From a virus: a stretch of 64,000 nt of DNA. Below the pieces are notes generated by a model, which saw only the letters and a program-made list of their open reading frames with translations, was not told the origin of the DNA and ran no database searches. The DNA lies in IMG/VR virus record IMGVR_UViG_3300034061_002572, positions 58,644-122,643 of that record; one strand, written 5' to 3'. The position numbers and the translations under genes were made by a program. Of this stretch, positions 25,503 through 51,739 are shown piece by piece. Each line of letters begins with the position of its first letter. Position 1 is the first letter of the stretch.

Positions 25503-25508
25503 AATGTA

Positions 25509-27710: not shown

Positions 27711-27712
27711 CT

Positions 27713-28228: not shown

Positions 28229-28229
28229 T

Positions 28230-29060: not shown

Positions 29061-29359
29061 AACTTTTCCAATTCTTCTTCTTGATCTTCTGTAGCTATAG
29101 CATCCCATTTACCTAATGGGCACTCTGATGATAATGATCTGGTTTTAAATGCTAATGAACATCCACACTCAGCACAACAAGGCTGTGTTTTCTTTACAGC
29201 ACACTCTTTACCTTTAGTATCTAAGTGTTCACAGTCATCACAGATATCATGTCTCATCCGTGCTATGTCTTCTACAAACTCATCTCTAATAATAGAGTTT
29301 TTAATTCCTTCCAGGATTCCTTTTCTATTCTCCCAGATTGTTTTCAGTACTGCTCTCAT
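29057..29359 (-). CDS. Cys-rich Zn-finger-like protein
   Basis: ICDDC...C...CCAECGC...SECPLGKW. Confidence 0.65.
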   Translation of the reverse strand: MRAVLKTIWENRKGILEGIKNSIIRDEFVEDIARMRHDICDDCEHLDTKGKECAVKKTQPCCAECGCSLAFKTRSLSSECPLGKWDAIATEDQEEELEKL

Positions 29360-29714
29360 CTTTATTTCTTTTAAATTCTAATTTTCTTATTTCTTCTAAA
29401 CTTATTTTGTGCTCAAGTTCAATTAATAAAGAAAGCTTATTCTCAATCATCTTTCTATTATAATATGCACCATAGGTAGATGTATCATGGTTTTCTAAAC
29501 TCTTAGTGTATTTTGGAATTGATTTTCTTACTAATCCACTTTTTGCAACAAAATGTCCAAGACCTTCTACATTAATCCTTGGATGTGCTAGACTGCTCAA
29601 AGTTTTTCTTAACTCCCCATAATAAAATTCAACAATATCTTGAATCATATTTGGATTTTCATTTAACTGCTCTGCTAAATCTTTGTATAGACTACTGGAC
29701 TTCTTCGGTATCAT
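29325..29714 (-). CDS. HU/IHF-like DNA-binding protein
   Basis: Two helices followed by RINVEGLGHF. Confidence 0.55.
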   Translation of the reverse strand: MIPKKSSSLYKDLAEQLNENPNMIQDIVEFYYGELRKTLSSLAHPRINVEGLGHFVAKSGLVRKSIPKYTKSLENHDTSTYGAYYNRKMIENKLSLLIELEHKISLEEIRKLEFKRNKDESSTENNLGE

Positions 29715-30072
29715 TCCCTAAAATTTTATAGTCTAATAGTAAGGTTCCTTCAGTTTGAATTTGTAGGGTGGGATTTAGTAATATTTGTTTTTTGTTTTCT
29801 GAGTCTTTAACTACTAATCCACTTTTTTCAGCTTTATTAATACAATTTCTAACTGTTTGAGGAGATTTAAATATCCAGTCTTCTTCTGAAGATGCATCAT
29901 AACAAAAATGAGTAAGTTCAATTGGTTGATTGAAACTTAATAACGTTAAACAGTTAAGATCAGATTCACTCACTGTAATACGGTTAATATAACAGTGAGT
30001 TAAAATCTGAAATTTCACTACATCCCACTTTGGCATTCTAATACGTTTCTGTACTTGATTGACAAGGGCCAT
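29692..30072 (-). CDS. Putative winged-helix DNA-binding protein
   Basis: SPQTVRNCINKAEKSGLVVKD...ILLNP wHTH-like pattern. Confidence 0.5.
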   Translation of the reverse strand: MALVNQVQKRIRMPKWDVVKFQILTHCYINRITVSESDLNCLTLLSFNQPIELTHFCYDASSEEDWIFKSPQTVRNCINKAEKSGLVVKDSENKKQILLNPTLQIQTEGTLLLDYKILGNDTEEVQ

Positions 30073-30075
30073 GTC

Positions 30076-30381
30076 TTATGATTTTTTTAACTTTCTCTCC
30101 TTTGGTGCATTTAGAGATTCTGTTTCTTGTTCAACTTCTGAGTCATCTTCATTTTGTCCATGCTCTGATTGAGATTGCATAAGCATACCAAATTGTACTT
30201 GGATGCTTGCTCTTTTAAATCTTACCTCATCTATTTTAGCCAATATACTTTCATACTCATATTGTGCATTTAAATAAGGTAATGAGTCCGTGTAAAAAGA
30301 AAGCATTTCTTCTTTTCTTTTTGCTAACTCTTCTGGAGACAATTGCTCCATTTCATCTGTTTGTTGGTTTAAATTTTCCAT
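30076..30381 (-). CDS. Hypothetical coiled-coil protein
   Basis: ATG at 30381, downstream of a TATATTTG box. Confidence 0.65.
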   Translation of the reverse strand: MENLNQQTDEMEQLSPEELAKRKEEMLSFYTDSLPYLNAQYEYESILAKIDEVRFKRASIQVQFGMLMQSQSEHGQNEDDSEVEQETESLNAPKERKLKKS

Positions 30382-30402
30382 TTTATATATTTTAAGTTTA
30401 GA

Positions 30403-30410
30403 CAAATATA
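30403..30410 (-). promoter_or_regulatory. Bacteroidota-type -7 box TATATTTG
   Basis: Matches TAnnTTTG; heads the packaging operon. Confidence 0.6.
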
Positions 30411-30442
30411 CAATAAAAGTTTAAACTAGATATATTTAAAAT

Positions 30443-30471
30443 AAAAAATCCAGGCATAGAAAATACCTGGA
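30443..30471 (-). terminator. Intrinsic terminator
   Basis: AAAAAATCCAGGCAT...ATACCTGGA. Confidence 0.6.
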
Positions 30472-30490
30472 GCACTTAAATTAGTATGTA

Positions 30491-30802
30491 TTATTTTTTT
30501 CTAGCTACAGCTCCGCCCTTTTTCTGTTTATTGAGATTTTCAAAACCTTTATAGGCAGCTATCCCAGTACCAATGCTTGCTAATGTACCAAGAAAACCTA
30601 CACCAGCTTGTTCTACAGCTTTACCTATTTTTTTAAAAGTTTTTCTACAAGATTTTTTAAATCTATCACCAGGACCACATTGTTCAGTAGCACCACCAGC
30701 GGCATAACTTTTCATTGGTCTAATCATTGATTTAGCTCCACCTTTTTGCATTGACTTACAAAATGCTGTAGCATCTGTAACTCCTTTTAGTCCATGTTTC
30801 AT
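30491..30802 (-). CDS. Basic protein with GG motifs and a hydrophobic segment
   Basis: 103 aa; SMQKGG, SYAAGG, KQKKGG. Confidence 0.7.
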   Translation of the reverse strand: MKHGLKGVTDATAFCKSMQKGGAKSMIRPMKSYAAGGATEQCGPGDRFKKSCRKTFKKIGKAVEQAGVGFLGTLASIGTGIAAYKGFENLNKQKKGGAVARKK

Positions 30803-30803
30803 G

Positions 30804-30962
30804 TTATCTATTTTTTATAGTAAAATTTAAAATAGTAAGAAGGTAAAATTCTCTAGATAAATCTAGCTCTAATGTAAATACATCTAATGTTGAGATTCTT
30901 AATCTTAGCATTAGTTTATCCCATTGTTTGCGGGAACCTTTCCAGTTATTTCTAAACTTCAT
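30804..30962 (-). CDS. Small hypothetical protein (52 aa, not in ORF track)
   Basis: MKFRNNWKGSRKQWDKLMLRLRISTLDVF...TIKNR; TAATG coupling to the upstream gene. Confidence 0.6.
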   Translation of the reverse strand: MKFRNNWKGSRKQWDKLMLRLRISTLDVFTLELDLSREFYLLTILNFTIKNR

Positions 30963-31270
30963 TACTTCTTGTTTCTTTTAGCTAAATGTTTAAGTATCCA
31001 ACGGCTAAATGTAGTACCTATTGTTTTCAATGCTTTGTTATCAGCATCTACTGTAACTTTAGAACCTTCAGCAGTTTTTTCTACTGTAACATCTAATTTA
31101 GGAGTATCAATAGTTACATGTTGTTCTGTTTCTGTAGCATGTACTTCTACATCTACTTTTGGAGTGTCTATAACTACATCCAAATTTTTCTTTTCTTTTC
31201 TAACGTAAGCTCTTTTAGTTTTTGTTTTTACTTCTAGCTCTACATTAACTTGTTTTTTCTTTCTTCCCAT
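30962..31270 (-). CDS. Hypothetical protein with DTPK(V/L)DV repeats
   Basis: 102 aa; late-type motif at 31291-31298. Confidence 0.65.
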   Translation of the reverse strand: MGRKKKQVNVELEVKTKTKRAYVRKEKKNLDVVIDTPKVDVEVHATETEQHVTIDTPKLDVTVEKTAEGSKVTVDADNKALKTIGTTFSRWILKHLAKRNKK

Positions 31271-31297
31271 TGTTAAAAGTTTTAGTTAATTAATATA

Positions 31298-31765
31298 CTA
31301 TGACCCTATCTCAAAATGCATCCAGTCATAATTCTTTTCTCTACCCAGGCTAATAAAGCCATGTTTGTAAAATATGTCTATCATCTGTTTATACTCAGGT
31401 CTTGCAAACCTAGCAGTCTTAGATGTTTCTTTTAAAGTGTTTCTGGCAGGATCTAAATCAATAGCAATTCCCCAAGAGTGTTTACTCCAAGCTGAACCAC
31501 CTCTCATTTTACGGAAATTAAAACAACCACCAAAAAGATCTATTCCTAATTCTTTAATTTTGGGTAAACCATAAGTTGCAAGGATATCTTTAAATACAGC
31601 CTCAAACTTATCAGCAACTAATCTATGACATCTTAGTCTAGTGACTGTTGTATCTAAATCCCAAGCTAATCTCATTGGGTAAGGCAGATTAACAGTAACA
31701 AGATATGCGGCTCCAGTTTCAGTTGGAGTTCCGTACTTCTTAATTGTCTGAGTTGTTGTCAACAT
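31298..31765 (-). CDS. Endolysin, peptidase M15 family
   Basis: [23 protein letters not shown]...DWMHFE zinc-ligand motifs. Confidence 0.9.
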
Positions 31766-31988
31766 CTTCTTCTGTATTTGTTGGTTGGTCAATTGTCAGT
31801 TGGGATAATGTAGCAGCTACTGTTCCTGCTGTTACTACATATCCAGCTGCTGTGACTAATGCTGCTGGTAAAGTTACTGGAGCTGCAATAATTACTCCTG
31901 CTACTGCTCCGGCAACTATTGCTATTCTTTGCACCTTTTTCCAAAAGCTAGGGGTTGGTGCATCCCATCTTTGTTTTAATTGCTTCAT
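31740..31988 (-). CDS. Putative holin
   Basis: 82 aa; two TM segments, PTPSFWKKV; adjacent to the endolysin. Confidence 0.6.
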
Positions 31989-32284
31989 TTATTTAGTATA
32001 AATTGCTTCACTGCATCTGACAGTTCACTTACATTTTTTGCTAGATTTTTTATTTCTAGTTGAGTAAGCTCTTGGATAGCTTGGTATTTTAATTCTGAGC
32101 TCTGTTGAACTAGTTCTATTTTACCTTTAAGTTTTCCTAATTCTTCAGCTCTTTTTTGATCAGTTTGCATTAAAAGCTCTATGTCTTTTCTTGCATCCAA
32201 ATATGCTGTTCTTAAAAAAAATCCGAAAATAGTTAATATTGTTCCGGATATAAAAAGTATTAAAGTTAAAACCCAAGTTTCCAT
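31985..32284 (-). CDS. Membrane protein with coiled coil (holin/lysis-associated)
   Basis: N-terminal TM segment followed by a coiled coil; lysis cassette. Confidence 0.5.
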   Translation of the reverse strand: METWVLTLILFISGTILTIFGFFLRTAYLDARKDIELLMQTDQKRAEELGKLKGKIELVQQSSELKYQAIQELTQLEIKNLAKNVSELSDAVKQFILNK

Positions 32285-32345
32285 ACTGCACAAATAAATA
32301 ATTACACTATAATATACAAAAAAATTTTGATATAAGTATAATTAC

Positions 32346-32657
32346 TTAGTTTAAATCTATAACAACTTCATAACCTTGTTGCTCATAAGCTATCTTAGCA
32401 TATTTATGAGCTGTCTCTAAAGATTGAACTTCACCTTCTTCAAGGTTAGATTTATAATTTCCAATAGGAACATCAGTATAAAGTATTTTACCTTCTGCAA
32501 ATGTCTCTGCATTAGCAAATGTTGCTACTTCACCTTCAATAGTGTTTCCTGGGAAATCACCTAAGAATCTAATTCTACCATAAACCTCTGGTAATTCAAT
32601 ACCTGTCCCTGAGATTGTAATCTTTTTTTCTTCTGTTGCTTTAATTAAAATTGCCAT
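32346..32657 (-). CDS. Hypothetical protein (tail-fibre accessory)
   Basis: 103 aa; last gene of the fibre operon. Confidence 0.55.
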   Translation of the reverse strand: MAILIKATEEKKITISGTGIELPEVYGRIRFLGDFPGNTIEGEVATFANAETFAEGKILYTDVPIGNYKSNLEEGEVQSLETAHKYAKIAYEQQGYEVVIDLN

Positions 32658-32685
32658 TGTTTTATTTTTTTTGCTAAATTAATAA

Positions 32686-32931
32686 TTAATTTTCAAAAGG
32701 TAGTGGTTGAGTTGTTACTTCAAATTTTGTTGGATCTCCTAATACTACTTTTAAACTTTCATCAAAAGTAATGTAATAAAAAATAGGATTGTCTAAAGTT
32801 GCTATTTGATAATCTGTCCAATTTTGTGTTACATCATCAGGTGCAATTGGAATACCATAATATGTATCACAAGTTTCTCTTGCATTAATAGCATCCTGTT
32901 CTGTAGTGTATTTGTATCCTGTTACTTCCAT
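32686..32931 (-). CDS. Small acidic protein (possible fibre assembly chaperone)
   Basis: 81 aa; follows the fibre genes. Confidence 0.5.
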   Translation of the reverse strand: MEVTGYKYTTEQDAINARETCDTYYGIPIAPDDVTQNWTDYQIATLDNPIFYYITFDESLKVVLGDPTKFEVTTQPLPFEN

Positions 32932-32936
32932 TGTAT

Positions 32937-33191
32937 TTAATTTTCAAAAAGTGGTGGTGTTGGTTTTGGTATATATTCAATCAATGGCAAATCTTTAACC
33001 CACATGAAATCAGGATTAACACATTGCTCCATTTCTTCAATTGATGTTATCCAATTGTCATTGACATCTTGTATAGAATTAAAATAAGAATCAGGTGCAT
33101 ACAATTGACCGAACATTTGGTCTTTTTGTACCTCTGTCAGTAAACCCACATAGGTTAACTTTTGTTCTGTTGTTAAATCTGTTAGTTTCAT
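32937..33191 (-). CDS. Small acidic protein (possible fibre assembly chaperone)
   Basis: 84 aa; YFNSIQDVNDNW...WVKDLPLIEY. Confidence 0.5.
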   Translation of the reverse strand: MKLTDLTTEQKLTYVGLLTEVQKDQMFGQLYAPDSYFNSIQDVNDNWITSIEEMEQCVNPDFMWVKDLPLIEYIPKPTPPLFEN

Positions 33192-34774
33192 ATTTGTCTA
33201 CCTAAAGTTGTTTGAAATGCTTGTACAGCTGTATAAAGATTACCGCTTTCAGTATTTGTCAATCCGTCTCCTATAAATGCAAAAGCTAATTGTTGTTTAC
33301 AATAAAATGCAGCAGTTAAATTATCTCCTTGATTCCTTGCTCCAAAGAAAAAATTCTTTCCACTTTCTATACCTCCAGCAGTTGTTCTTGTTCCTAAACT
33401 AACTCCAGCTCTATATGCTTGCCAATCTGAAGAACTTCTTCTTGTCAACATTAGTAATGATGTTGTAGGATTAGCCGTATAAGTTAAAGTGTTTCCAGCA
33501 TCACCTGAAATAAAATTACCACCTGATATAAAATTTTGAATAAGTGTACTAAATCCAGCCCCTGAAAAAACACCATAAGCCTGAGTTCCCGTTGTATCAT
33601 TTGTTCTTGAATAAATACCAAATGAATGTGAGTTGACACTAATGTCTGTAACGGTTTTACAAAAACTATCAGCCCAACAATCTAATCCATTAGGAGTTGC
33701 TCCATTACTTGTATGTAGCCATCCGCCACTAAAAAATAACCTGTATGCCACATCCAAGTCGCGTGGGTCTTTAAGATTGAATTTGTGAGTAGTAGCCGTA
33801 CCACCCACAAAAGGATATAAAGCTTTCATTTTTGACCAAATACCATAACCTTTCAAGTCAACTACCAATGTATTAATAGCCGCTTGTTGTGTTGGGTCTG
33901 TTATTGCAGCCGCTGTTATGAATGCTTGAGCATCTGGGTCAAAAACGTATATTGAATAAAATGTATTTATATTGCTTTCAATTCCTGTTCTATTTGTACT
34001 TTGATTGGAGTTATAGAATACAATTTCCTGTATGTGTCCATGGCAATAATCAGAAATGTAACGCCCAATTCTATTTATTTCAAGTCTTAAAACAAGAGAA
34101 GTAAACGATGAAGCTATTGTATTATTATTTTTAAACATTGACATTGTTCCTGAATTATTTAATCCAGTTAATAATAATTGTGCAGTTGTTGTATCTGTTG
34201 AAGAACTGGATTGAAATCCACTTGCATTTGCTTGTAAATAATAGATATTATTAAACCATAATGTAAAAACATAAGGACTTCCAGCAGGTGTATCTGATGA
34301 ACCTAAACTAATTAATCTTCTACTACTTGCATCACGTTTACCAACAAATGAATTATAATTAGAAGTATTATAATTAATAGTTGTGGTTAAATTAAACGAA
34401 TTTGTTGTACCGTTAAAAGATAAAGAGGGTTTAGAATTAATTTTATTAACTACTCCGCTTGTTACTATTTGAGGTTGAAAACCTGCTGTTGTTTGAACAC
34501 CATTATTTGCATTACCGCTTTGATCATACCATGTTGTTACAAATCCATTTCCAGAACCACAAAATGAAAGCAAAGCTGCTTCATCTAAAACATTATTTAC
34601 AAATCCTATATCTTGAGTTGTATTATCACTTGAACGTCTTACTTGAATTGCTGCTCCTGTATAAGCTGTTCTTAGTTTTCTAAGTGAATAAGCAACCGAT
34701 GCATTTGGGAATAAGTCCAAAAGTAAATTACCACTTATCTTTGGCATCATTGATATTAAACTATAGTAACTCAT
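33188..34774 (-). CDS. Two-domain lectin/LamG-like receptor-binding protein
   Basis: AYSLRKL...VRRSSDN...GFVTTWYDQSGN (arabinofuranosidase-B-like lectin fold) plus a DPDAQAFITAA...AFQTTLGRQ domain. Confidence 0.65.
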   Translation of the reverse strand: MSYYSLISMMPKISGNLLLDLFPNASVAYSLRKLRTAYTGAAIQVRRSSDNTTQDIGFVNNVLDEAALLSFCGSGNGFVTTWYDQSGNANNGVQTTAGFQPQIVTSGVVNKINSKPSLSFNGTTNSFNLTTTINYNTSNYNSFVGKRDASSRRLISLGSSDTPAGSPYVFTLWFNNIYYLQANASGFQSSSSTDTTTAQLLLTGLNNSGTMSMFKNNNTIASSFTSLVLRLEINRIGRYISDYCHGHIQEIVFYNSNQSTNRTGIESNINTFYSIYVFDPDAQAFITAAAITDPTQQAAINTLVVDLKGYGIWSKMKALYPFVGGTATTHKFNLKDPRDLDVAYRLFFSGGWLHTSNGATPNGLDCWADSFCKTVTDISVNSHSFGIYSRTNDTTGTQAYGVFSGAGFSTLIQNFISGGNFISGDAGNTLTYTANPTTSLLMLTRRSSSDWQAYRAGVSLGTRTTAGGIESGKNFFFGARNQGDNLTAAFYCKQQLAFAFIGDGLTNTESGNLYTAVQAFQTTLGRQI

Positions 34775-34775
34775 A

Positions 34776-36275
34776 TTATGCTTCTGTTGTTACACCAATT
34801 GCATCCCATCTACTATCATCAGAATTGTAAATCAATCCAACATAAGTAGTTTTACCTGCTGTTGTAGTAGTAGGTAAAGTCACTCCTATTGCTCTATATC
34901 CACCAGTTCCTGATGTCCAAGTAATAGTTTGTGCTGAACCATTATCTTTAATTCTTATTACTAAGTCTTTTCCATCTATAGCTGTTCCTGTTGGAGCTGC
35001 TAATGTTAAAGCTGCTGCTTGAGCTGTAATTTTTACTAAATCATTAGCAAAAGTTGGAGTTACTGTTGCAGCAGAAGCAACTGATTGTACTGCTGGAGCT
35101 ATTGTTGATGTAGCTAAAACCCCTAAGTTGGTAAGAGCATCTGCAATACCTTGCGGAGTTGTAACAGCTGTATTTTGATACAACTTAATAATAGAACCAT
35201 TCTCTGTTCTAAAATGTGGTGCTGCATTATTAGTTGTTGCGTCTGCTGAATATTGTTGGAATGAATCCGTTATGTTTAAAGATGGAACATTAGGATGATT
35301 TCTAACAACAAGTGTATTTCCACCATTACCCATAAATGTATCAGTTCCATACGTTCCAGTTCCATTTGCAAATATATATGCTTGTTGCCCAAGTAAACCT
35401 AATGAACCATTAGCTCTGATAAGTGTTGAAGAATTATCACTATTAAAGTGAGTCATAAACACATCATCTGACCCAAAATTATTACCATTATTTCCTTTTT
35501 TACCTAAGTAAATTGAACGTGCCCCCGAATAAGTTGTGTTACCACCTGTATTTCCAATAACAATTGTATCAGTTCCTGATGTTCTTGCTCTGTCTCCAAT
35601 AGCAATCCCACCAACTGAATTTACTAGAGTACTAAAACCAATAGAAATACCAAATGATGCTGATGCTCCAGCTGTTGCAATATTTCCAATTGCTGTGTTA
35701 TAATAAGTTGCATTAGTAATTGAGGCTCCTTGGCCAAATGCAATAGAACCAATTGCAGTTGGTGAATATCTAATTATTGAATCAGTTGTTCCTGCAATAT
35801 ATATAATGTTTTGGTTGTTAGATTGAGCCTGTGGAATATACATTTCACCATTACCTCTAATACTAAATATATCAGCCGTATCAAGACTATTCTTAACTCT
35901 AAATGCTATGTCATTAGTTGTTCCACCTGGGGCTATTGTTCTAAGTGATACACCTGAATTAGCACCTGCGCCTAACTGTAAGATATTAGTAGCGTTGTCA
36001 AAAGTAAATCTATCTGATTGTTGAACAACTCCTCCAGCTTGAAAGAATACTCTACTATCTACTCCTGATGAAGTAGTAGAACCTACTGTTATTCCTCCTT
36101 CTGCACTAAATATTTCTTGGACAACTCCTGAACTATTTTTATAACGGATTAATCCATCTGTAAGATCTTTAAAATAAGTAGAGTTTGGTACACTGCTCCA
36201 ATCAGCTGATGAATCAGTTATATAAGTAAATGTTATACCATTACTATTTCTTACTGCACTTTGAGTTACTGCCAT
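34776..36275 (-). CDS. Tail fibre protein
   Basis: 499 aa; YadA-head-like IAIG repeats; C-terminal LPTTTTAGKTTYVGLIYN...WD. Confidence 0.65.
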   Translation of the reverse strand: MAVTQSAVRNSNGITFTYITDSSADWSSVPNSTYFKDLTDGLIRYKNSSGVVQEIFSAEGGITVGSTTSSGVDSRVFFQAGGVVQQSDRFTFDNATNILQLGAGANSGVSLRTIAPGGTTNDIAFRVKNSLDTADIFSIRGNGEMYIPQAQSNNQNIIYIAGTTDSIIRYSPTAIGSIAFGQGASITNATYYNTAIGNIATAGASASFGISIGFSTLVNSVGGIAIGDRARTSGTDTIVIGNTGGNTTYSGARSIYLGKKGNNGNNFGSDDVFMTHFNSDNSSTLIRANGSLGLLGQQAYIFANGTGTYGTDTFMGNGGNTLVVRNHPNVPSLNITDSFQQYSADATTNNAAPHFRTENGSIIKLYQNTAVTTPQGIADALTNLGVLATSTIAPAVQSVASAATVTPTFANDLVKITAQAAALTLAAPTGTAIDGKDLVIRIKDNGSAQTITWTSGTGGYRAIGVTLPTTTTAGKTTYVGLIYNSDDSRWDAIGVTTEA

Positions 36276-36292
36276 TTTTTTTAATTTATAAA

Positions 36293-39169
36293 TTATTCAA
36301 TATCTACATCTTCTATAATTGTACCCAGTACAGATTGACTTAATGTATACATTGCAGGACAAAGCCCTGTTCCATTTAGATTTGTAGTGGCAGGAATAGT
36401 AAATACCAATCCAGCAGTGTCCATTTCTGTATAAAAATAAGTGTCTGTACCAGGAATATCTTGAGAAGCTGTTATATCTAATGTTGCTGAAGCATTTATT
36501 AATGTTACCATTCTTTGAGCTAATAAAGCAGTTGTATTATAAACGGCAGTATTAGACTCTGTAAATGTTTCATTTCCACCAGTTCCGTCATTAAGGGTTA
36601 TACTTGTAGAAGCAACTGCGGTTACATCCCATTTCATTTTTAGTTTTTTAGCAGCTAAAGTTCCTCCATTAGATATTAAATTGGTATTCATTCCTCCTGA
36701 ATAAACTTTAAGTGCTAATCCTGCAGCAGTTGTTCTAATCGGAGTTACATTACTAATATTAGATATTAAAGTACCTCCATTAATAATTACCTTGCCTGAA
36801 TTAAACTCAATTGGTGAAGCAAATAAAGATGTATAACTTGTTAAACCTAATGAAGCAGGAAAATTAACTCTGATTGTACCATTTAAAAATAAAGTACCTC
36901 CGTTAACTCTTATACCATAATATCTTGTTTGTGCATAACTAGCACCGCCATATTCATAATCACCATTTATGATAAGTGTACCTCCTGTTAAGTCTGACGC
37001 AGCAGACATATCATCATTTGTCCAATTTCCATTTAAAGTTACAATTCCACCTGAAATAGCAAAACCACTTGTCGGATCTTGGTTTTGCATTAATAAAGTT
37101 ACTTTACCTCCAGATACAGTTATTAATGCTGATGTAGAATTATCTTGTGTTCCTGCATAATTAGTATTTACTTCTCCATTTATAATATTTATTCTGCCAA
37201 CTTGACCGCCATCTAAAAACATTCTTCCAGCTAAACTATAACAGTACCCGTTTAAATTAATTTTGCCTGATGCTGCTACATAACTAGCATTTATGCCTGT
37301 AATATAAGAAGTTGTTAATGTTGCCATAGAATCTAAACCATTATAACTTAATCCGAATGTTAATGTTGCTGACTTTATGTAATTTACATTTATATTTATT
37401 ATATTGTTTGTTGACATTGCTATACAATGAGTATTTATAGCAGTCGTTTCAATTAAATATCCATTAACATTTAGATTACAATTTGAAAAATGACCTGCTG
37501 CACCTCCTGCCGAACCTGCAAATACTACACCAGCTGTTGAACTCATTGAGTGCATTTCAATTGATATACGAGAACTATCAATATTAATAACTGCCCCAGC
37601 AGTTGAAGATGCATTTTTAAAGTCAAGATAACATTTTGTAGCTGACCTAATATCAAAGATTACAGAACTTGTTGATGTTGTAAGTTCATTTGCTTGAAAA
37701 ACAATATTAAATGAAGAAGATGTTACATATAAAATACTTGCTGCATTTGTTGTTTTATTAAAATTACCATAACCATATACACTAAAACCTGTTGTAAAAG
37801 AGGATACTCTAAACATATCTCCTGCGGTTGATTTATTTATAGTACATCCAGGTGAGAAATAATATGAAACACCGTCCTTGGCTAAACCTTCTGTTGCAGT
37901 TGTTGTAACAGTGTAAGTACCTGGATAAACATAAATTAAATCTCCGTTAGTAGATGCAGCTTGTGCTGCTTCGAGAGTAAGATATGGATTAGAAATACTA
38001 CCAATAATTGCCGTTCCATCATTACCAGTTGTTGCAACAAATAAGATTTTTCCCAATGAAACTGATGGTATTATTGCCCACGTCCCGTCACCTCTTAAAT
38101 ATTTAGCTAAATCATTTGGAGCTTTAGGAACAAAACCATGTTTAGTGATACTTACATCATTAGTTGTAATATCACTTGTAGATAAATTAGCATCTGTTAC
38201 AGTATATGTTCTATCTGCTGATAAATCTTGTGTATTTCCATTTATTGTAATATTTCTTGATGTTGGAACACCACCTAAACCTGATAATGTATAGTTAGGG
38301 ATATTTAAGACATTAGCTATAAATGTTGCTGCTCCAGATGATGTAAGTGTAGTTAATGTTATTGGATCTTGTTTTCCGTTAAACAAAGCAAAATCTGCAG
38401 AATCTAAATAACCATCTACCAAAGCTGTAGCTTGAGATATACTAATAGCTGGTGCTGTACCTCCTGAAGAAGCTATGGGAGGTGTTCCTGTTACATTAGT
38501 TACTGCTCCGGTTGGTATTGTTTGATTAAGAGTTGTTAAACCTACTGAATAATTTGTAGAACCCTCTGTATAAAATGTAATTGAGTTAGTAGTAGAATCT
38601 GTATTAGTTACTTTAACTTTAACTACTATTCTATCTGTTGTTAATACAGTTGATGCAGGAAATACACCATCCGTAAGAATCATAGTTGGTGAACCTGTAA
38701 GTGATGATGTAGAAAGTTGATCTGTTGTTAATAACAATGTCTCTACTCCCGCCAAATTTCTTTTATATACTTCAGTAAATATATCCCATGTATCACTTAA
38801 TGTTCCTGAAAAATGTAAGTAAAAAGACCATAATCCTCCAGGAATGTTTGTAGTACCTGGAACACCAGTAGCTGTTTGAAAAGATTGAATTGTTGCTGTT
38901 GTACCTGATGCTACTGAAGTTACAATAGTTTGTTCAGCCGCACTTGTAGGTATAGAAGAAAACTCTTTATATGGTGTTTGATTTACGGTTTGATTTAAAT
39001 AATATGTAGTAGTACCAGATCCTCCTGTAATATTTACTGTAACATCATTATTTGTTGAACTAGCAATTACACCAGAACCCGTAAAATTTATACTATTTAC
39101 ATCAGAAGTGATTAATACATTTTCTTCTTTGATGCTAATCTTTTTCTTAATATTAATATCTGTACTCAT
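36293..39169 (-). CDS. Tail spike/fibre with beta-helix
   Basis: 958 aa; FVATTGNDGTA..GSISNPYLTLEAA...GDLIYVYPGTY pectate-lyase-like entry motif. Confidence 0.7.
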   Translation of the reverse strand: MSTDINIKKKISIKEENVLITSDVNSINFTGSGVIASSTNNDVTVNITGGSGTTTYYLNQTVNQTPYKEFSSIPTSAAEQTIVTSVASGTTATIQSFQTATGVPGTTNIPGGLWSFYLHFSGTLSDTWDIFTEVYKRNLAGVETLLLTTDQLSTSSLTGSPTMILTDGVFPASTVLTTDRIVVKVKVTNTDSTTNSITFYTEGSTNYSVGLTTLNQTIPTGAVTNVTGTPPIASSGGTAPAISISQATALVDGYLDSADFALFNGKQDPITLTTLTSSGAATFIANVLNIPNYTLSGLGGVPTSRNITINGNTQDLSADRTYTVTDANLSTSDITTNDVSITKHGFVPKAPNDLAKYLRGDGTWAIIPSVSLGKILFVATTGNDGTAIIGSISNPYLTLEAAQAASTNGDLIYVYPGTYTVTTTATEGLAKDGVSYYFSPGCTINKSTAGDMFRVSSFTTGFSVYGYGNFNKTTNAASILYVTSSSFNIVFQANELTTSTSSVIFDIRSATKCYLDFKNASSTAGAVINIDSSRISIEMHSMSSTAGVVFAGSAGGAAGHFSNCNLNVNGYLIETTAINTHCIAMSTNNIININVNYIKSATLTFGLSYNGLDSMATLTTSYITGINASYVAASGKINLNGYCYSLAGRMFLDGGQVGRINIINGEVNTNYAGTQDNSTSALITVSGGKVTLLMQNQDPTSGFAISGGIVTLNGNWTNDDMSAASDLTGGTLIINGDYEYGGASYAQTRYYGIRVNGGTLFLNGTIRVNFPASLGLTSYTSLFASPIEFNSGKVIINGGTLISNISNVTPIRTTAAGLALKVYSGGMNTNLISNGGTLAAKKLKMKWDVTAVASTSITLNDGTGGNETFTESNTAVYNTTALLAQRMVTLINASATLDITASQDIPGTDTYFYTEMDTAGLVFTIPATTNLNGTGLCPAMYTLSQSVLGTIIEDVDIE

Positions 39170-46789: not shown

Positions 46790-46811
46790 AAGACAAATAT
46801 ATAAAGAATTT

Positions 46812-47150
46812 TTATTTATCCAAACTTTCTATTCTTTTTTTAAGATAAACCATGGCTTTTTCAAGATCTTCTTTATATCTACTAGAATCTTTTTTACCGG
46901 CCCGGGCAACATATTTAATAACATTACCCAAGTAGAAGTCTTTATCTAAACCCCATTCTTCAAGAACCCGGAATACTTCATATGGATTATCTTTACCACC
47001 ATAATATCCAGGTCTAGGACCTTCATCTAGTCTAACTATTCTATTTGTAAGATCTTTGGGATATCCATTAATATAAGAAAGTCTATCAGTAATTCCACTT
47101 GCCATATAGGTGTAAGGAGAAGCTGGAGTATTTTTCTTTTCATTGCTCAT
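46812..47150 (-). CDS. DUF3310 / T7 gp1.7-like nucleotide kinase
   Basis: YYGG...YE...FYLGNVIKYVARAGKK...EDLEKA.VYL. Confidence 0.8.
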   Translation of the reverse strand: MSNEKKNTPASPYTYMASGITDRLSYINGYPKDLTNRIVRLDEGPRPGYYGGKDNPYEVFRVLEEWGLDKDFYLGNVIKYVARAGKKDSSRYKEDLEKAMVYLKKRIESLDK

Positions 47151-47152
47151 AT

Positions 47153-47446
47153 CTACCAGATTATGATAACATCTCCTTCATTAAGTACAAGTTTGATTTC
47201 TCCATTGATATCTATCCGCTCAACTTGTTCCAAATTAAGAGCTGATGTACGGACATATACTTGGTCTCCAACTTTTACTTCTTCTACTTTATCCCCTACA
47301 GCATATACAGTAAGTTTATTCCATAGCTTGGCTGCTTCCTGCATCATAGCTTCTTCATCTTTTGCTGATAGCTCAATAGCTGACTTCTTTCTTTGTGGAA
47401 CATCTAGTAAGATAGTTCTACCTCTTAGTGATTTAAATGCTGACAT
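47153..47446 (-). CDS. groES: GroES-like co-chaperonin
   Basis: 97 aa; SLRGRTILL...VYAVGDKVEEVKVGDQVY...LVLNEGDVI Cpn10 pattern. Confidence 0.7.
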   Translation of the reverse strand: MSAFKSLRGRTILLDVPQRKKSAIELSAKDEEAMMQEAAKLWNKLTVYAVGDKVEEVKVGDQVYVRTSALNLEQVERIDINGEIKLVLNEGDVIIIW

Positions 47447-47733
47447 TATTTATTCTTTAGTGTTATTACTTTTACTACTGACATTTGAGCATTTAGGATT
47501 TCCCCCAGAGCATGGTCAAATAACAAACTTTTTAGGGGCCCTCTCTCAGCTTCATAATCTTTCTTTAAGATTTCAGCCATTTCTGCTGCTAATAACTTTA
47601 CTTTAGTTACTGTAGTGTCATCCAAATTATCTGGATCTAATCCTACTAACTGATGACCAAAAGGAACAATCTTGTGTTCATGGATTTCAGGAGCATTTTC
47701 TGGTACATTGTACACTGGTTTTTCTTTACTCAT
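47446..47733 (-). CDS. Acb2/Tad1-like helical-hairpin protein (candidate nucleotide-signal sponge)
   Basis: FGHQLVGL...VTKVKLLAAEMAEIL...HALGEILNAQMSVVKVIT. Confidence 0.5.
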   Translation of the reverse strand: MSKEKPVYNVPENAPEIHEHKIVPFGHQLVGLDPDNLDDTTVTKVKLLAAEMAEILKKDYEAERGPLKSLLFDHALGEILNAQMSVVKVITLKNK

Positions 47734-47752
47734 TGTATTTGGTTTTAATTTA

Positions 47753-48061
47753 TTACGCATCATACTTTTGTTTTGTGTTTATAGGTTTATTTTCTTTTTC
47801 TTCTTCAATAGGAGCCCCCTCAATAAGGTTATACTTGATTCTTTCTAATAAACCTATAAGAGCTAGATTATCATATGCATCTTCTGCAACTCTTACTTCT
47901 ATTCCGTCTGGTTTTTCTATAATAGACACTAATAATTTATCTGACATATTTAATAATTTATTTAATTCATCATAGAGCTCCCGGGCACGTAGATTATCCA
48001 TGCCGGCATCTCTAACATCTTCAGTTAACTTTCTCCACAACAACTTTTGCTGGGCAGTCAT
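47753..48061 (-). CDS. Hypothetical protein
   Basis: ATG at 48061 (alternative start 47947); ALIGLLERIKYNL. Confidence 0.55.
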   Translation of the reverse strand: MTAQQKLLWRKLTEDVRDAGMDNLRARELYDELNKLLNMSDKLLVSIIEKPDGIEVRVAEDAYDNLALIGLLERIKYNLIEGAPIEEEKENKPINTKQKYDA

Positions 48062-48139
48062 AGTCAAATAAATAATTAGGGAGTGTTGCTCTCATAGTTT
48101 GTTGGTAACACAAATATATAAACTATTTTGATTTAAACT

Positions 48140-48200
48140 AAAAACCCCAGAAAATTTTTCTAGGGTCTTCAGTACTACCATTAAAAATTAAATTATGAAC
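48140..48200 (-). ncRNA. Candidate ~60-nt small RNA
   Basis: TATATTTG box at 48205-48212 and terminator at 48140-48167, with no ORF between them. Confidence 0.4.
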
Positions 48201-48216
48201 ACTACAAATATACAAC

Positions 48217-48414
48217 TTATTTTATATCTCTGCCAAATGTCAAATTATTTTTTGCGCGGATGTCTTTATGAGTAAACTGCCAGAACTCACCAGTAGATGT
48301 TATTATCACAGTATAGATAGTATCAGTCTCATACCCGTAGTCAGTAACAAGCCAAATAACCCCCGGACCTTTAGGTGTATTAACCTCTATTCTATTATGG
48401 GGCTCATACATCAT
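48217..48414 (-). CDS. Small hypothetical phage protein
   Basis: 65 aa; V.TPKG.G..WLV.DYG.E..T...TGEFW family pattern. Confidence 0.65.
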   Translation of the reverse strand: MMYEPHNRIEVNTPKGPGVIWLVTDYGYETDTIYTVIITSTGEFWQFTHKDIRAKNNLTFGRDIK

Positions 48415-49078
48415 ATCCTGTAATGTTTATGTTTTCATCTCTTGCAACAAGAGTCTTGTACAACTCCACATCAGTTGACCATTCTTTACCTGTCCAAAAT
48501 TCAAACCCAGAATAGTTAGCTTTATATTCACAGCACTTCTCATATCCACCTAAGAGATACACATACTCACAGTTCAAAAGTTTTGCAGTTTTACATTCCA
48601 TCATCTGAGCTATGGTACCCAGAGAAAGTTTAGGATCTTTATAGTCCCAGATAAACTCATAAGCTACAAATTGTTTGTTAAACACCCTGTACAAACTAAT
48701 ACCTATTAATAAATCTGTGTGATATTCAATAACATTACAATCCTTAAAACTAGCTAGATTAATATCTCTCTTAAATCCATGATATTTACAGTACTTATCA
48801 TACAACTCTTCATACTGTTCTAGATTAGCCAGTACATCTCCGTGCTCTATGGTAACATACTTAGATAACTTCTTTGTAGTTTTAGCTGGCTTGTATTCAT
48901 TAAGATCTAATCTAACACTTCGGAGGTTATACCAATAATCCTCCCATAATATCCAACCTTCTTTTATTACATCCTCCTCAGATTCATTTGGTTCTAGTAC
49001 ACCATAAGGATTTGAGAATATAAAATCCATATGTTTAATCTTACCAAACCCAGTAATATGATCAAAGTATACTTTCAT
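48404..49078 (-). CDS. ATE/Bpt-like aminoacyl-tRNA-protein transferase
   Basis: ATG at 49078; RSVRLDL..YKP.KT.KKL, YEELYDKYC..H, WDY.DPKLSLGT, YVYL, YKANY.GFE resemble the ATE/Bpt C-terminal domain. Confidence 0.7.
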   Translation of the reverse strand: MKVYFDHITGFGKIKHMDFIFSNPYGVLEPNESEEDVIKEGWILWEDYWYNLRSVRLDLNEYKPAKTTKKLSKYVTIEHGDVLANLEQYEELYDKYCKYHGFKRDINLASFKDCNVIEYHTDLLIGISLYRVFNKQFVAYEFIWDYKDPKLSLGTIAQMMECKTAKLLNCEYVYLLGGYEKCCEYKANYSGFEFWTGKEWSTDVELYKTLVARDENINITGYDV

Positions 49079-49091
49079 AGAGTAAAGATAT

Positions 49092-49310
49092 AAAAAACCC
49101 GGGTAGTAATTCTTGATCAGAGAAACTTTCCCGGGGGTGTTACTAGTTATACATGTTGGTACCATGCTTTCCCAATAACCAAAAAGACCAGATATAGTGA
49201 GCAGATCTTACGGTATGCTGTCTGGTACTTAACCTATAGTTACTAACTACAGGGGAGGTATTCTATAGCAACAGTATCACCATAGGATTCCGTTAACAAG
49301 TAACGGTGGG
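49092..49310 (-). ncRNA. Candidate ~215-nt structured ncRNA
   Basis: TATATTTG box at 49316-49323, five consecutive hairpins, terminator at 49092-49137. Confidence 0.5.
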
Positions 49311-49326
49311 GTATGCAAATATAAAC

Positions 49327-49356
49327 AAAAAACCCCGGACTGTAGCTTCCAGGATT
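49327..49356 (-). terminator. Intrinsic terminator of a tiny unit driven by TATGTTTG (49395-49402)
   Basis: AAAAAACCCCGGA...TCCAGGAT. Confidence 0.55.
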
Positions 49357-49546
49357 TAATGATAATTTAAAAGTATAACTCAAAAAAGTTAATACAAACA
49401 TAAGTTTTTCTACGGCATATAGAAAAACAATATTTAGTAGTTTGTTAGGGTCCACTACTAATACACCCCCCGGCCCTCACCCGCAAGGTGGGTACCCCCC
49501 ATAAAATTCTGACTGTATGGCACTGTTCAGCTGTACTTGCAAGAAA

Positions 49547-49581
49547 TTTTTCCTGCGGAAAAAAGTTTTATTTTTTAACTG
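49547..49581 (+). promoter_or_regulatory. Hairpin promoter candidate 1
   Basis: TTTTTCC-TGC-GGAAAAA (template loop C-GCA-G) followed by TATTTTTTAACT. Confidence 0.5.
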
Positions 49582-49606
49582 ATTTTAAATTCTAAAAAAT
49601 AAAGTT

Positions 49607-49750
49607 ATGATATCAACTACATCAGTTCAGTCTATCAAAGGTGTTCTATGTCTTGTGCAAACAATCGTTTACAAGAGTGGCAAGAAAGTTAAAAGGATAT
49701 TAGATCCTAATACCAAAATGCCAATTGACATTATAGAAGTGAAGGCTTAG
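49607..49750 (+). CDS. First early ORF, 47 aa (not in ORF track)
   Basis: MISTTSVQSIKGVLCLVQTIVYKSGKKVKRILDPNTKMPIDIIEVKA; lies between hairpin 1 and a terminator. Confidence 0.55.
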   Translation: MISTTSVQSIKGVLCLVQTIVYKSGKKVKRILDPNTKMPIDIIEVKA

Positions 49751-49764
49751 GCCTTCTTTCTTTT
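49741..49764 (+). terminator. Intrinsic terminator
   Basis: GAAGGC-TTAG-GCCTTC-TTTCTTTT. Confidence 0.7.
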
Positions 49765-49800
49765 GTCCTTCGGACCGCTTTTTATTTTATTTTTTCACTA
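49765..49800 (+). promoter_or_regulatory. Hairpin promoter candidate 2
   Basis: GTCC-TTC-GGAC-CGCTTT...TATTTTTTCACTA (template loop C-GAA-G). Confidence 0.65.
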
Positions 49801-49825
49801 AAATGGAACTTTAAATCTTTATAAA

Positions 49826-50089
49826 ATGTCAGTATTTACAAAAACACAGTCTATCGGGGTATTTGCACAAATGAATGGAATCGGCAAAATTGACCTTGTA
49901 ACAAATCCTCACAATGGGAAAACATTTGGTGTTTCAGACACAGGTGTAACATTCAGGGTTTCTAATGACGTTCAGAAACTCACAGCAGATTTGTCTGTAT
50001 CTTGGTTCACACCAAATGACGGTGATGCATCCTGGATGATTCATCCTACTGGGCAGAGTAATGTTCAGTCCTCTCTGTCCTTTGCATAA
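49826..50089 (+). CDS. Early protein, paralog A
   Basis: 87 aa; V.NPH.GK.F and SW..P.DG..SWMIH pattern reminiscent of crAss-like early proteins. Confidence 0.75.
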   Translation: MSVFTKTQSIGVFAQMNGIGKIDLVTNPHNGKTFGVSDTGVTFRVSNDVQKLTADLSVSWFTPNDGDASWMIHPTGQSNVQSSLSFA

Positions 50090-50101
50090 GGGCACAGAAA
50101 G

Positions 50102-50134
50102 AAAAGAATATCCACTTAGGTGGTATTCTTTTTT
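50102..50134 (+). terminator. Intrinsic terminator
   Basis: AAAAGAATA.CCAC-TTAG-GTGG-TATTCTTTTTT. Confidence 0.7.
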
Positions 50135-50208
50135 AGGTACTAAGCCTCGAGAGTTCTACTGTTCCAATGAGGATAGTTGATCTGAGATATCTACAGTGTG
50201 TTTCCTCT

Positions 50209-50242
50209 GTGCTGCGCACCGCTTTAAATTATTTTTCCACTA
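50209..50242 (+). promoter_or_regulatory. Hairpin promoter candidate 3
   Basis: GTGC-TGC-GCAC-CGCTTT-AAAT-TATTTTTCCACTA. Confidence 0.7.
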
Positions 50243-50284
50243 AATTTAGTTATTAATTGTTTTACTTAAATCCTAAAAGAGCTT

Positions 50285-50560
50285 ATGAGCACATTTAGCA
50301 AAACTCAAAACATCGGTGTGTTTGCACAGATGAATGGTATCAACAAGATTGATATTGTGACTAATCCTCACACAGGTAAGAACTTCGGTGTGTCTGACAC
50401 TGGACTTACTTTCCGTGTAAGTGAGAAAGTAGATACATTGACAAGAGATTTGTCAGTGAGTTACTTCACTCCTGCAGACGGGGAGCCTTCTTGGATGATT
50501 CATCCAACAGGGGAGTCTAATGTGCAGAGCACATTGGCATTTGCACCTGCTTCCAAGTAA
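50285..50560 (+). CDS. Early protein, paralog B
   Basis: 91 aa; 67/87 identical to paralog A in a manual ungapped alignment. Confidence 0.75.
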   Translation: MSTFSKTQNIGVFAQMNGINKIDIVTNPHTGKNFGVSDTGLTFRVSEKVDTLTRDLSVSYFTPADGEPSWMIHPTGESNVQSTLAFAPASK

Positions 50561-50607
50561 TTGGGAGTGGGTAGCAATACCTGCAGATTTTATTGGTTAA
50601 AGATTGA

Positions 50608-50636
50608 AACCCTAGGAGACTAGGGTTATTTTTTTT
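50608..50636 (+). terminator. Intrinsic terminator
   Basis: AACCCTAG-GAGA-CTAGGGTT-ATTTTTTTT. Confidence 0.8.
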
Positions 50637-50650
50637 ATATAATATCTCTT

Positions 50651-50684
50651 GCACTGCGTGCCGCTTTGGTCTATTTTTCCACTA
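50651..50684 (+). promoter_or_regulatory. Hairpin promoter candidate 4
   Basis: GCAC-TGC-GTGC-CGCTTT-GGTC-TATTTTTCCACTA. Confidence 0.7.
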
Positions 50685-51099
50685 GCAGGGATTATGTTTA
50701 TTATAGACAAATCTTGTAAATGTTGTAGATTTTATAGTTATTATACACATGGTGCATACTCTACTAGGAGTGCATTGATACTTTGTATACATTAATGGTG
50801 TGCTACAGAGTGTTAGTTTAATAGTGAGTATTTAACTATCCACAATTCTATAACCTCTATAACTGCTGTATTTCCTCTATATATTAAGTTTATATAATAG
50901 AATTAATATAGCTAACACAAGATTCCTCTAGTCACTTTGTTTATACTATACTATACTATCTACAATATTTAGAAGAGATGTACAGTCAGAGTATCCGGGA
51001 TTTCCAGTCACACACCAATATGGCATTAGGAATAAACCAGTCTGGTACCCGTCAAAGACCATAATTCAAACTCAAGCAAACCTTAAACACAAATAAAAC

Positions 51100-51321
51100 A
51101 TGATTACAAAAGCAGTATTCATTTGGTTATTACTTACAGGACAAGTAGAATACCAACAGAACGGAGGAGATGGCCGGAAACAATATGCACTGTTCTTTGA
51201 AGATGGAACAGTAGTAGACTATGCTTATAAAGCAGAAATACTAGAGTATATAGAAACCGGAACATTTGAATATGATGATACTTTGGATGACAAAGTAACA
51301 GATGCACATAAGGGGAAGTAA
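51100..51321 (+). CDS. Hypothetical early protein
   Basis: 73 aa; followed by the hairpin AAGGGGAA-GTAA-TTCCCCTT. Confidence 0.65.
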   Translation: MITKAVFIWLLLTGQVEYQQNGGDGRKQYALFFEDGTVVDYAYKAEILEYIETGTFEYDDTLDDKVTDAHKGK

Positions 51322-51331
51322 TTCCCCTTTA

Positions 51332-51446
51332 TACTCTCATCCAAGCAGGTAAGGATATGCTACTAGTAGATTTCGTCAATCTATTACTGTGGGCACTTAA
51401 TGGAATGACTACATCCTCAAGGGTTGCAACCTTGTGAGAGTACTAA
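51332..51446 (+). ncRNA. tRNA-like multi-stem RNA element
   Basis: 8-bp closing stem, D-arm-like TCC-AAGCAGGTAA-GGA, T-arm-like CAAGG-GTTGCAA-CCTTG. Confidence 0.45.
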
Positions 51447-51475
51447 TTAAATTATTAACCCTTAAACTTATACTT

Positions 51476-51739
51476 ATGGAAACTATTTACTGGACTATGA
51501 AGAATGGTCAGAAGATTAATGTTGATACTATGGACATTAATCACCTCCGGAATACTCTCAAGATGCTTATTAGAGCCAAGAGAGCATCAACTACACCTAA
51601 GCCTAAGTTTCAGGTGCACGGTGAGATTGCTAGTGAGTTTGCTGATATGGCAAGACTCTATGCAATTAATCCTGAACTGACTTGTACTTGTGATGAAGTA
51701 CATGTGTGTCAGCAATGTTATGAATTAGATATTAAATAA
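51476..51739 (+). CDS. Hypothetical protein
   Basis: YWTMKNGQKINVDTMDINHLRNTLKML family motif; C-terminal Cys cluster. Confidence 0.65.
   Translation: METIYWTMKNGQKINVDTMDINHLRNTLKMLIRAKRASTTPKPKFQVHGEIASEFADMARLYAINPELTCTCDEVHVCQQCYELDIK

Follow-up and report, generated by a model that had tools for sequence, protein, structure and literature searches.

Candidate early promoter cassettes with covarying DNA mini-hairpins in an uncultured crAss-like phage

Background

Few viruses are known to be as abundant as the crAss-like phages, whose injected RNA polymerase is the founding member of a distinct class related to the eukaryotic RNA-interference polymerases. What signals could lead such an enzyme to its first genes? 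No description of early promoters for the crAss-type virion polymerase was found in the literature, where the work on phage phi14:2 was covered as preprint text only. The question is raised by a stretch of 64,000 nucleotides (nt), hereafter the window, which comprises bases 58644-122643 of the 122,643-base IMG/VR virus record IMGVR_UViG_3300034061_002572 (completeness rating 100%). Four small elements, each with a DNA mini-hairpin followed by a T-run, stand there at the start of a rightward gene arm. On balance they appear to be phage-specific early or pre-early promoter cassettes, with a T-run/ACT box as the core signal, the hairpin as an accessory and an RNA polymerase of the type of phi14:2 gp66 as the likeliest reader. 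Positions are those of the window unless the genome is named.

Four elements at the head of the rightward arm

All copies are intergenic and on the coding strand, where the rightward arm begins (Table 1). The initial annotation of the window had described four such elements on the plus strand, and all four are read there as described. The proposed unit would consist of the terminator of the previous unit, a mini-hairpin with a stem of 4 base pairs (bp) and a 3-nt loop, the block CGCTTT, 4-6 nt, a T-run leading to CACTA, a leader of 25-45 nt and a small gene; in the fourth unit a long leader into replication genes would take the place of the small gene. The loop centre is 23-27 nt upstream of the conserved ACT[AG] in the four copies. 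Copy 1, the first unit of the arm, is a divergent, weaker member of the set: its CGCTTT block is absent and AACTG stands in place of CACTA. Its stem can be extended to 6 bp (TTTTCC/GGAAAA).

The setting had also been noted correctly. Copies 1-3 precede open reading frames (ORFs) of 47, 87 and 91 amino acids (aa), with 57, 61 and 76 nt from the hairpin start to the ATG. Terminators had been claimed before copies 2-4; those before copies 2 and 4 were called by the scanner and that before copy 3 was seen by eye only. An Rfam search of positions 48900-51600 with E up to 1 returned only two sub-threshold snoRNA models, rejected as chance matches; their bit scores are 25.6 and 19.5, the gathering scores 60 and 50.

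Stems covary and loops keep a signature

Relatives were found in IMG/VR and in metagenomes through the 91-aa protein. The five close relatives have four or five copies each of the hairpin, CGCTTT and the T-run/CACTA. Seven stems occur in this close clade (GTCC, GTCT, GCCC, GTGC, GCAC, TTCC, TGAC), all perfectly paired, and additional stem sequences occur in distant relatives. The window and the close relatives together provide 23 copies. An ATG-started ORF of at least 35 aa begins 49-76 nt after the hairpin start in 17 of them; five others, all last copies, have leaders of at least 370-400 nt, and one stands 204 nt before its ORF.

The claim that the stems differ and yet pair holds when the hairpin is ignored in the search. 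A hairpin-blind search for the box gave 22 matches: the 20 that belong to the family have four of four stem pairs, and the two unrelated ones have none. A stem-free scan of IMG/VR gave at least 74 distinct matches. Among the matches listed, both free positions were paired in all six with a box, versus two of the 68 without one, and there were no new relatives. The exact pattern of CGCTTT and box matches 57 stretches in IMG/VR, with the real element only in loci L014 and L049. Six additional IMG/VR loci flagged as having the hairpin were rejected, as all share one unrelated sequence.

In alignment A1, 98.9% of the cells are paired and all four pairs have changed on both sides, a result reached by none of 500 shuffles; controls with slid columns were 9-57% paired. 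The single unpaired cell, in row L066, is a MAFFT misalignment. Alignment A3 covers 14 distinct orthologous sites, and its pairs, counted from the loop outwards, are formed in 14, 14, 12 and 7 of them. The stem thus seems to be kept by compensatory change, with structure rather than sequence under selection.

The loops on the coding strand are TGC (14 copies), TTC (7) and TTT (2); the first base, T, is fixed, the middle one is variable and the third, C, is nearly fixed. Distant relatives have TGC, TTC or TAC. On the template strand this gives the C-GNA-G form that had been proposed, as the loop is G-N-A in 21 of 23 copies and the closing pair is C:G in 21 of 23. The exceptions are two copies with an AAA template loop and two with a T:A closing pair.

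The copies are clustered far beyond chance expectation

Perfect hairpins of the form NNNC-TNC-GNNN occur exactly four times in the 122,643-base genome, both strands considered, and these are the four copies. First-order Markov simulations gave a mean of 2.3 such hairpins per genome with a maximum of 7. For four random sites to fall on one strand within 1.1 kb the probability is about 3.6e-7 analytically, and this happened in none of 2,000,000 simulations. The combination CGCTTT-N2-8-TATTTTTYCACT is found three times in the forward and never in the reverse direction genome-wide, with zero matches for both reversed-pattern controls. The 13-mer box alone, with two mismatches allowed, is not enriched in the window (13 found versus 15.9 expected); the signal therefore comes from the exact copies and from their association with the hairpin.

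A gp66-type polymerase gene lies outside the window

The initial annotation stated that the RNA polymerase gene is not in the window, and it was indeed found elsewhere in the record, at genome positions 25445-37792 on the minus strand (L068, 6146-18493). This 4115-aa ORF, among the first large genes of the minus arm, is collinear with phi14:2 gp66 (E 9e-14, pairwise BLASTP). The DFDxD motif reads SGSDFDVDK here and TGSDFDIDK in gp66, with DFDVD at residue 2295. The protein is much longer than the 2180-aa gp66: the homologous core covers approximately residues 1468-2581 of 4115, between large N- and C-terminal extensions. The adjacent ORF encodes 2028 aa with a LysM stretch. The three giant ORFs gave no polymerase match against PDB sequences (phmmer) or PHROGs, and the homology to gp66 was seen only in pairwise BLASTP. 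Its proteins place the phage as a distant crAss-like phage with a gp66-type virion polymerase. Since the recognisable polymerase seems to be a two-barrel enzyme of this type, the element would not be filed as a member of the N4 (gp50) family. The search for T7-like RNA polymerases (PF00940) in six frames gave no match, but its control also matched none of 14 genomes. The sigma factor domain Sigma70_r2 had no match in six frames of the phage genome, with the positive control found in 10 of 14 genomes.

The remaining gene content agrees with this placement. Portal, large terminase and major head protein are recognised by PHROGs matches, and the terminase shares about 25% identity with its counterparts in uncultured crAss-like phages and in Flavobacterium phage FpV4. 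The genes form two arms. The long minus-strand arm covers genome positions 19356-107808; the plus-strand arm starts at 49.5 kb of the window and, if the record is circular, reaches 18.5 kb of the genome. The plus arm has DnaB-, primase/Toprim-, UDG-, Sak4-, AAA_24- and PD-(D/E)XK-like genes. The same two-arm layout is found in phi14:2, whose early arm corresponds to the plus arm here and likewise has DnaB-, primase-, UDG- and Sak4-like genes.

For phi14:2 the text of the preprint reports that gp66 is active on single-stranded DNA and prefers it, that it reads the early genes, and that early transcription is resistant to rifampicin, so the literature statements of the initial annotation hold; the same text describes no common motif upstream of the early transcripts. 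In crAss001 the earliest genes are described as a small cluster at one genome end. A 2026 paper on N4, in the part available, treats phi14:2 gp66 structurally only.

Distant relatives keep the box mostly without the hairpin

The role of the individual parts can be judged from loci L077/L084, L079, L082 and L083, whose conserved early protein is 40-58% identical to that of the window phage. They have six to twelve early units built as in the window, each with a terminator, a conserved box, some 35 nt of leader and the ATG, in this order. The box is CCATTTTTTAACT in L077/L084, AGACTTTTTTTACT in L079, and TTCATCTTnTAACTA in both L082 and L083. All these boxes end in a T-run followed by ACT[AG], and their upstream half differs between phages. 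In G001, the record behind L077, a stretch of 3.2 kb contains, on one strand, all ten exact matches to the box and two of the seven matches with one mismatch; the remaining five are scattered, and the reversed-pattern controls gave three and one. The boxes of G001 that lack a mini-hairpin have the stem of the preceding terminator 5-16 nt upstream.

It is in front of the conserved gene of 87-100 aa that the mini-hairpin persists best: of its 38 distinct upstream regions, 28 have a hairpin of the C-TNC-G type, always 59-77 nt from the ATG and with stems as short as 2-3 pairs. Because the units of distant relatives keep the box, mostly without a mini-hairpin, the T-run/ACT box looks like the core signal and the hairpin like an upstream accessory that is universal only in the clade of the window phage. 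The initial annotation had seen in the hairpin a recognition element like that of N4. This part of the proposal is weakened: most units of the distant relatives are hairpin-free, so the hairpin is not obligatory, and it is the box that heads the six to twelve units.

Proposed early promoter cassettes and the alternatives

The favoured interpretation is then as follows. Transcription would start at or beside ACT[AG], and the gp66-type enzyme would recognise the T-run/ACT box. The hairpin, about 25 nt upstream and beside an A/T tract, may extrude on supercoiled DNA and so help to expose the single-stranded template; it would be an upstream accessory kept for its structure, the template C-GNA-G being a stable form of small hairpin that could be extruded. 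We infer the injected gp66-type polymerase as the likeliest reader; its phi14:2 homologue needs a single-stranded template. The case is circumstantial. It is made because the units come first in the early arm, the plus strand there has no Bacteroidota-type box, the box varies between phages and no sigma factor was detected, and further because the early arm of phi14:2 is read by gp66 and the related enzyme gp96 of phage P23-45 uses an AT-rich motif. Of the earlier suggestion of hairpin promoters for the crAss-type enzyme, the cassettes at the head of the early arm and the gp66-type gene stand, whereas the hairpin proves facultative and would not be at the -11 position of N4.

A stronger version is offered tentatively. 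The two-barrel polymerase might enter at template-strand GNA mini-hairpins extruded by supercoiling about two helical turns upstream of the A/T-rich box; units without a hairpin might use the inverted repeat of the terminator; and promoter 4 might also drive a long non-coding early transcript through a conserved region at the GC-skew minimum, which could prime or activate replication. If this were true, the N4 strategy would have been reinvented convergently by an unrelated enzyme.

A number of observations weigh against the promoter interpretation or against the part given in it to the hairpin. Most early units of L079, L082 and L083 have no mini-hairpin. In G001 a C-TNC-G mini-hairpin occurs within 17 nt of only four of the 12 boxes, and the spacing from hairpin to ACT[AG] is 17-23 nt there (counted by hand) versus 23-27 nt in the window. 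Such variable spacing argues for a helper role rather than for a ruler of the N4 kind; if transcription started at ACT[AG], the loop centre would be at about -23 to -27, which would not fit the fixed distance of -11 in N4. Ten of the 38 upstream regions, all from one clade, have neither the hairpin nor the T-run/ACTA box. It had been proposed to look for the hairpin at the early ends of other crAss-like phages, and it occurs in some units of the distant relatives. The two reference phages lack it: the coding strand of phi14:2, the one phage whose enzyme of this type has been studied, has no hairpins with a 4-bp stem in the first 50 kb and none with a 3-bp stem in the first 41 kb, and the last 14.7 kb of crAss001 contain only one hairpin with a 3-bp stem, in a place that is not promoter-like.

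The statistics of the hairpin itself call for similar caution. The rows of alignments A1 and A3 were chosen with a pairing criterion, and only the box-only search and the stem-free scan are free of this bias. Orthologues make up much of the alignments, and the independent compensatory events are therefore nearer 6-10 than one would take from the cell counts. The nearest-neighbour energies of the hairpins in DNA are -1.8 to -2.7 kcal/mol (z -1.1 to -2.9), and 9-30 of 200 shuffles fold as well under this model. Energies are alike for both strands, presumably because the parameter set does not credit GNA loops. Thermodynamics is too weak as an argument either way. Finally, the minimum of the cumulative GC skew, at 49.4-49.8 kb, coincides with the divergence point of both gene arms, as would suit a replication signal.

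Among the alternatives, the least unlikely, though still improbable, is that the host RNA polymerase uses the units as promoters, aided by an alternative host sigma factor or by a small factor made or injected by the phage, the palindrome being an operator or an UP-like element. Position and orientation suit any kind of promoter, and the hairpin is dispensable in relatives. The primary sigma factor of Bacteroidota recognises TTTG at -33 and TAnnTTTG at -7, about 20 nt apart. The T-run box TATTTTTC is one base off this -7 pattern, and bipartite TTTG...TAnnTTTG matches occur nearby in the leftward direction (48237, 46824), as do four copies of TATATTTG on the minus strand at 46.8-49.3 kb; the host may therefore be a Bacteroidota. 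However, relatives do not preserve the leading TA (they read TGTTTTT, TCTTTTT, CCATTTT), and no copy has the final G of the -7 pattern. As the initial annotation had stated, the units have no TAnnTTTG box: none occurs on the plus strand at 49166-51100, where two are found on the minus strand, and the region has no bipartite match. Genome-wide the bipartite matches number nine, versus 9.45 expected. The upstream half of the box varies by phage, which is unusual for a host sigma signal, and the phage has no Sigma70_r2 match. A dimeric regulator would keep its half-site, whereas here there are seven or more stems, several of them within one genome.

A role of the hairpin in RNA, as a weak second terminator or attenuator for read-through, a protective 5' stem-loop or a processing site, is distinctly less probable. 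It would be in keeping with copies 2 and 4, where the hairpin has a terminator tail on its 5' side and CGC with U-rich sequence on its 3' side, and the same cassettes contain strong terminators. Yet a stem of 4 bp, or 2-3 bp in relatives, with a 3-nt loop is far weaker than known intrinsic terminators, and CGC separates it from the U-run. The fixed T and near-fixed C of the loop are the G-N-A signature of the other strand, and a U-N-C loop is not known to have a stabilising role in RNA. The first unit of the arm, which has no upstream gene, also has a hairpin (49550; likewise in L077). Finally, at copy 2 the terminator tail runs directly up to the stem, so that a promoter for a start 5' of the hairpin would not fit in between.

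Least probable of all, and by our estimate only a slight chance, are replication signals, that is, origin-linked cruciforms or priming sites on single-stranded DNA clustered at the strand-switch point. Stable GNA mini-hairpins are known as priming sites on single-stranded phage DNA, four to six copies cluster within 1-3 kb, and a conserved non-coding stretch lies 3' of copy 4; against this, a GC-skew minimum is expected at any divergent junction because GC skew also tracks gene orientation, every copy is oriented as the genes are, each small gene has one copy and its ATG follows at a nearly constant distance (49-76 nt for 17 of the 23 copies, 59-77 nt in distant relatives), and copies are gained and lost together with the gene as a cassette.

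The candidate signal is compact, conserved and covarying, with four copies here and up to twelve in relatives. Its parts (hairpin, CGCTTT and T-run/ACTA box) are separable, so that recognition could be tested on oligonucleotide or plasmid templates without a cultured host.

Cassettes, early genes and neighbouring features

Table 1. Elements, genes and terminator-like hairpins in the early region
Feature	Position	Strand	Description
Copy 1	49550..49581	+	TTCC-TGC-GGAA at 49550, then TATTTTTTAACTG at 49569; T-run and AACTG
47-aa ORF	49607..49750	+	3' of copy 1; no family match
Terminator-like hairpin GAAGGC-TTAG-GCCTTC, T-rich tail	49741..49764	+	stem 49741-49756 called by the scanner; abuts copy 2
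Copy 2	49765..49800	+	GTCC-TTC-GGAC, CGCTTT and TATTTTTTCACTA (at 49788)
87-aa early gene	49826..50089	+	paralogue of the 91-aa gene, 77% identity (alignment A2)
Terminator-like hairpin, one bulged T, T6 tail	50106..50134	+	seen by eye, not called by the scanner; about 70 nt 5' of copy 3
Copy 3	50209..50242	+	GTGC-TGC-GCAC, CGCTTT, N4 and TATTTTTCCACTA
91-aa early gene	50285..50560	+	family conserved across relatives
Terminator-like hairpin AACCCTAG-GAGA-CTAGGGTT, T8 tail	50608..50637	+	stem 50608-50627 called by the scanner; 5' of copy 4
Copy 4 (last copy)	50651..50684	+	GCAC-TGC-GTGC, CGCTTT, N4 and TATTTTTCCACTA
Leader without ORF, about 415 nt	50685..51099	+	3' of copy 4; followed by tightly packed replication genes

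Locus L061 has exactly one cassette more than the window, about 335 nt long and made up of a GCCC-TTC-GGGC promoter, a 68-aa gene and a terminator. The site of the missing cassette is 50134/50135 in the window and corresponds to 3735-4265 in L061; the break points fall within the terminator-tail repeat TATTCTTTTTT. L062, L063 and L065 have a unit here as well. A gene remnant in the 74 nt 5' of copy 3 was considered and rejected, since the alignment with L061 shows a clean difference of one cassette. The cassette structure explains the gain and loss of small early genes between relatives.

The 87- and 91-aa proteins are tandem paralogues whose family is found in 41 metagenome loci. The conserved early protein of 87-100 aa has no Pfam or PHROGs family match. 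The AlphaFold model (predicted local distance difference test score, pLDDT, 82.5) is a small beta-barrel with one helix. Structure matches are weak (best Foldseek E 0.06; best VIA-align Z 3.6), mostly to OB-fold nucleic-acid binders; a single-strand-binding role, if the protein has one, would fit a hairpin promoter. A resemblance to a frame at the right end of crAss001, seen by eye, was dropped (best tblastn E 5-7.5).

The stem of copy 4 is identical in all five close relatives. The leader that follows it contains no ORF at a cut-off of at least 35 aa; four relatives share conserved islands in it, among them AATTAATATAGCTAA and a block resembling TCCGGGATTTCCAGTCAC, and consensus folding of it gave no structure. 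It recalls the abundant long non-coding early transcripts described in the phi14:2 preprint text. No further repeated signal was seen in the packed genes 3' of it.

The clade without hairpin and box comprises L080, L081, L219-L227, L231 and L234. Upstream of the conserved gene these loci have a repeated TTGCTTTCTTTTTTTGAC...AACCCATTTTT block in their place, perhaps a promoter of another type.

Just 5' of the first early promoter, at 49440-49500, there is a C-rich element ending in GGTACCCCC(C), with several G-runs on the minus strand. Similar elements occur in distant relatives, at about 2745-2790 in L077 and 5' of the first box in L082 and L083. It is possible that they are signals related to a terminus, to packaging or to structure. 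Beside the junction of the arms, a 253-aa ORF (48404-49165, minus strand) gives a match above the cut-off (E 3.1e-07) to PF04377, the C-terminal domain of arginine-tRNA-protein transferase. Further to the left, the four TATATTTG boxes (minus strand, 46794-49323) stand among small leftward genes, and two of them lie within the bipartite matches mentioned above. The motif of these boxes is not enriched in the window as a whole (11 found versus 8.9 expected). The leftward boxes are possibly host-type, Bacteroidota-like promoters, unlike the rightward units.

Comparison with known systems

Hirao and colleagues reportedly described extraordinarily stable DNA mini-hairpins of the d(GCGNAGC) type. 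The template strand of most copies likewise has C-GNA-G with G:C-rich flanking pairs, and some distant relatives keep only the two or three innermost pairs (GC-TAC-GC, GGC-TTC-GCC and GCC-TTC-GGC on the coding strand). The likeness is incomplete: a generic nearest-neighbour model gives only -1.8 to -2.7 kcal/mol here, two of 23 copies have AAA loops and two of 23 a T:A closing pair.

The cassettes resemble the PeSL elements of T4-type phages, described in the portion available of PMC2839356, in which small non-essential genes stand between a terminator stem-loop and an early promoter. There, too, cassettes are gained and lost by recombination between repeated signals, as in the one-cassette difference between the window and L061. 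However, the PeSL promoters in that account are strong, of the sigma-70 type and read by the host, and the box here is not of that type: a scan of the region for sigma-70-like promoters gave 18 matches versus 12.3 +/- 3.8 expected, none of them above 10/12 and none consistently at the four boxes. The covarying mini-hairpin is an additional difference.

A closer parallel in the enzyme is Thermus phage P23-45, whose gp96 is a single-chain, two-barrel virion polymerase related to the crAss type. According to the available text of PMC10770324, an AT-rich motif precedes its small set of pre-early genes and is confined to relatives carrying the virion enzyme. The likeness of the motifs is by description only, and that text does not mention a hairpin. 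Starts were mapped and enzyme occupancy was shown for P23-45, whereas the present case comes from sequence analysis.

The last comparison is with the promoters P1-P3 of N4 (Schitoviridae). As far as the available text of the review PMC4496689 goes, N4 also has a small inverted repeat with a 3-nt loop before its first genes and injects its own polymerase; the stem is partly free if pairing is kept, the template loop is G...A with a C:G closing pair, and several copies open the early region, where each unit closes with a terminator. The 5' G and 3' A of the template loop and the closing C:G pair are needed there for extrusion and stability of the hairpin; the G and A form a sheared pair, and a 7-bp stem is mentioned (PMC4496689). 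The differences begin with the polymerase, of the two-barrel gp66 type here and T7-like in N4. The stem has 4 bp here (2-4 bp in relatives) and 5-7 bp in N4 promoters. In addition, there is a separate T-run/ACTA box, found in relatives also without the hairpin. The element thus seems to resemble an N4 early promoter in the type of hairpin and in setting while not being a member of the N4 family, from which it differs in polymerase class, in stem length, in its distance from the likely start and in having a separate box. If the hairpin is functional, two unrelated injected polymerases would share a way to a single-stranded template on freshly injected DNA.

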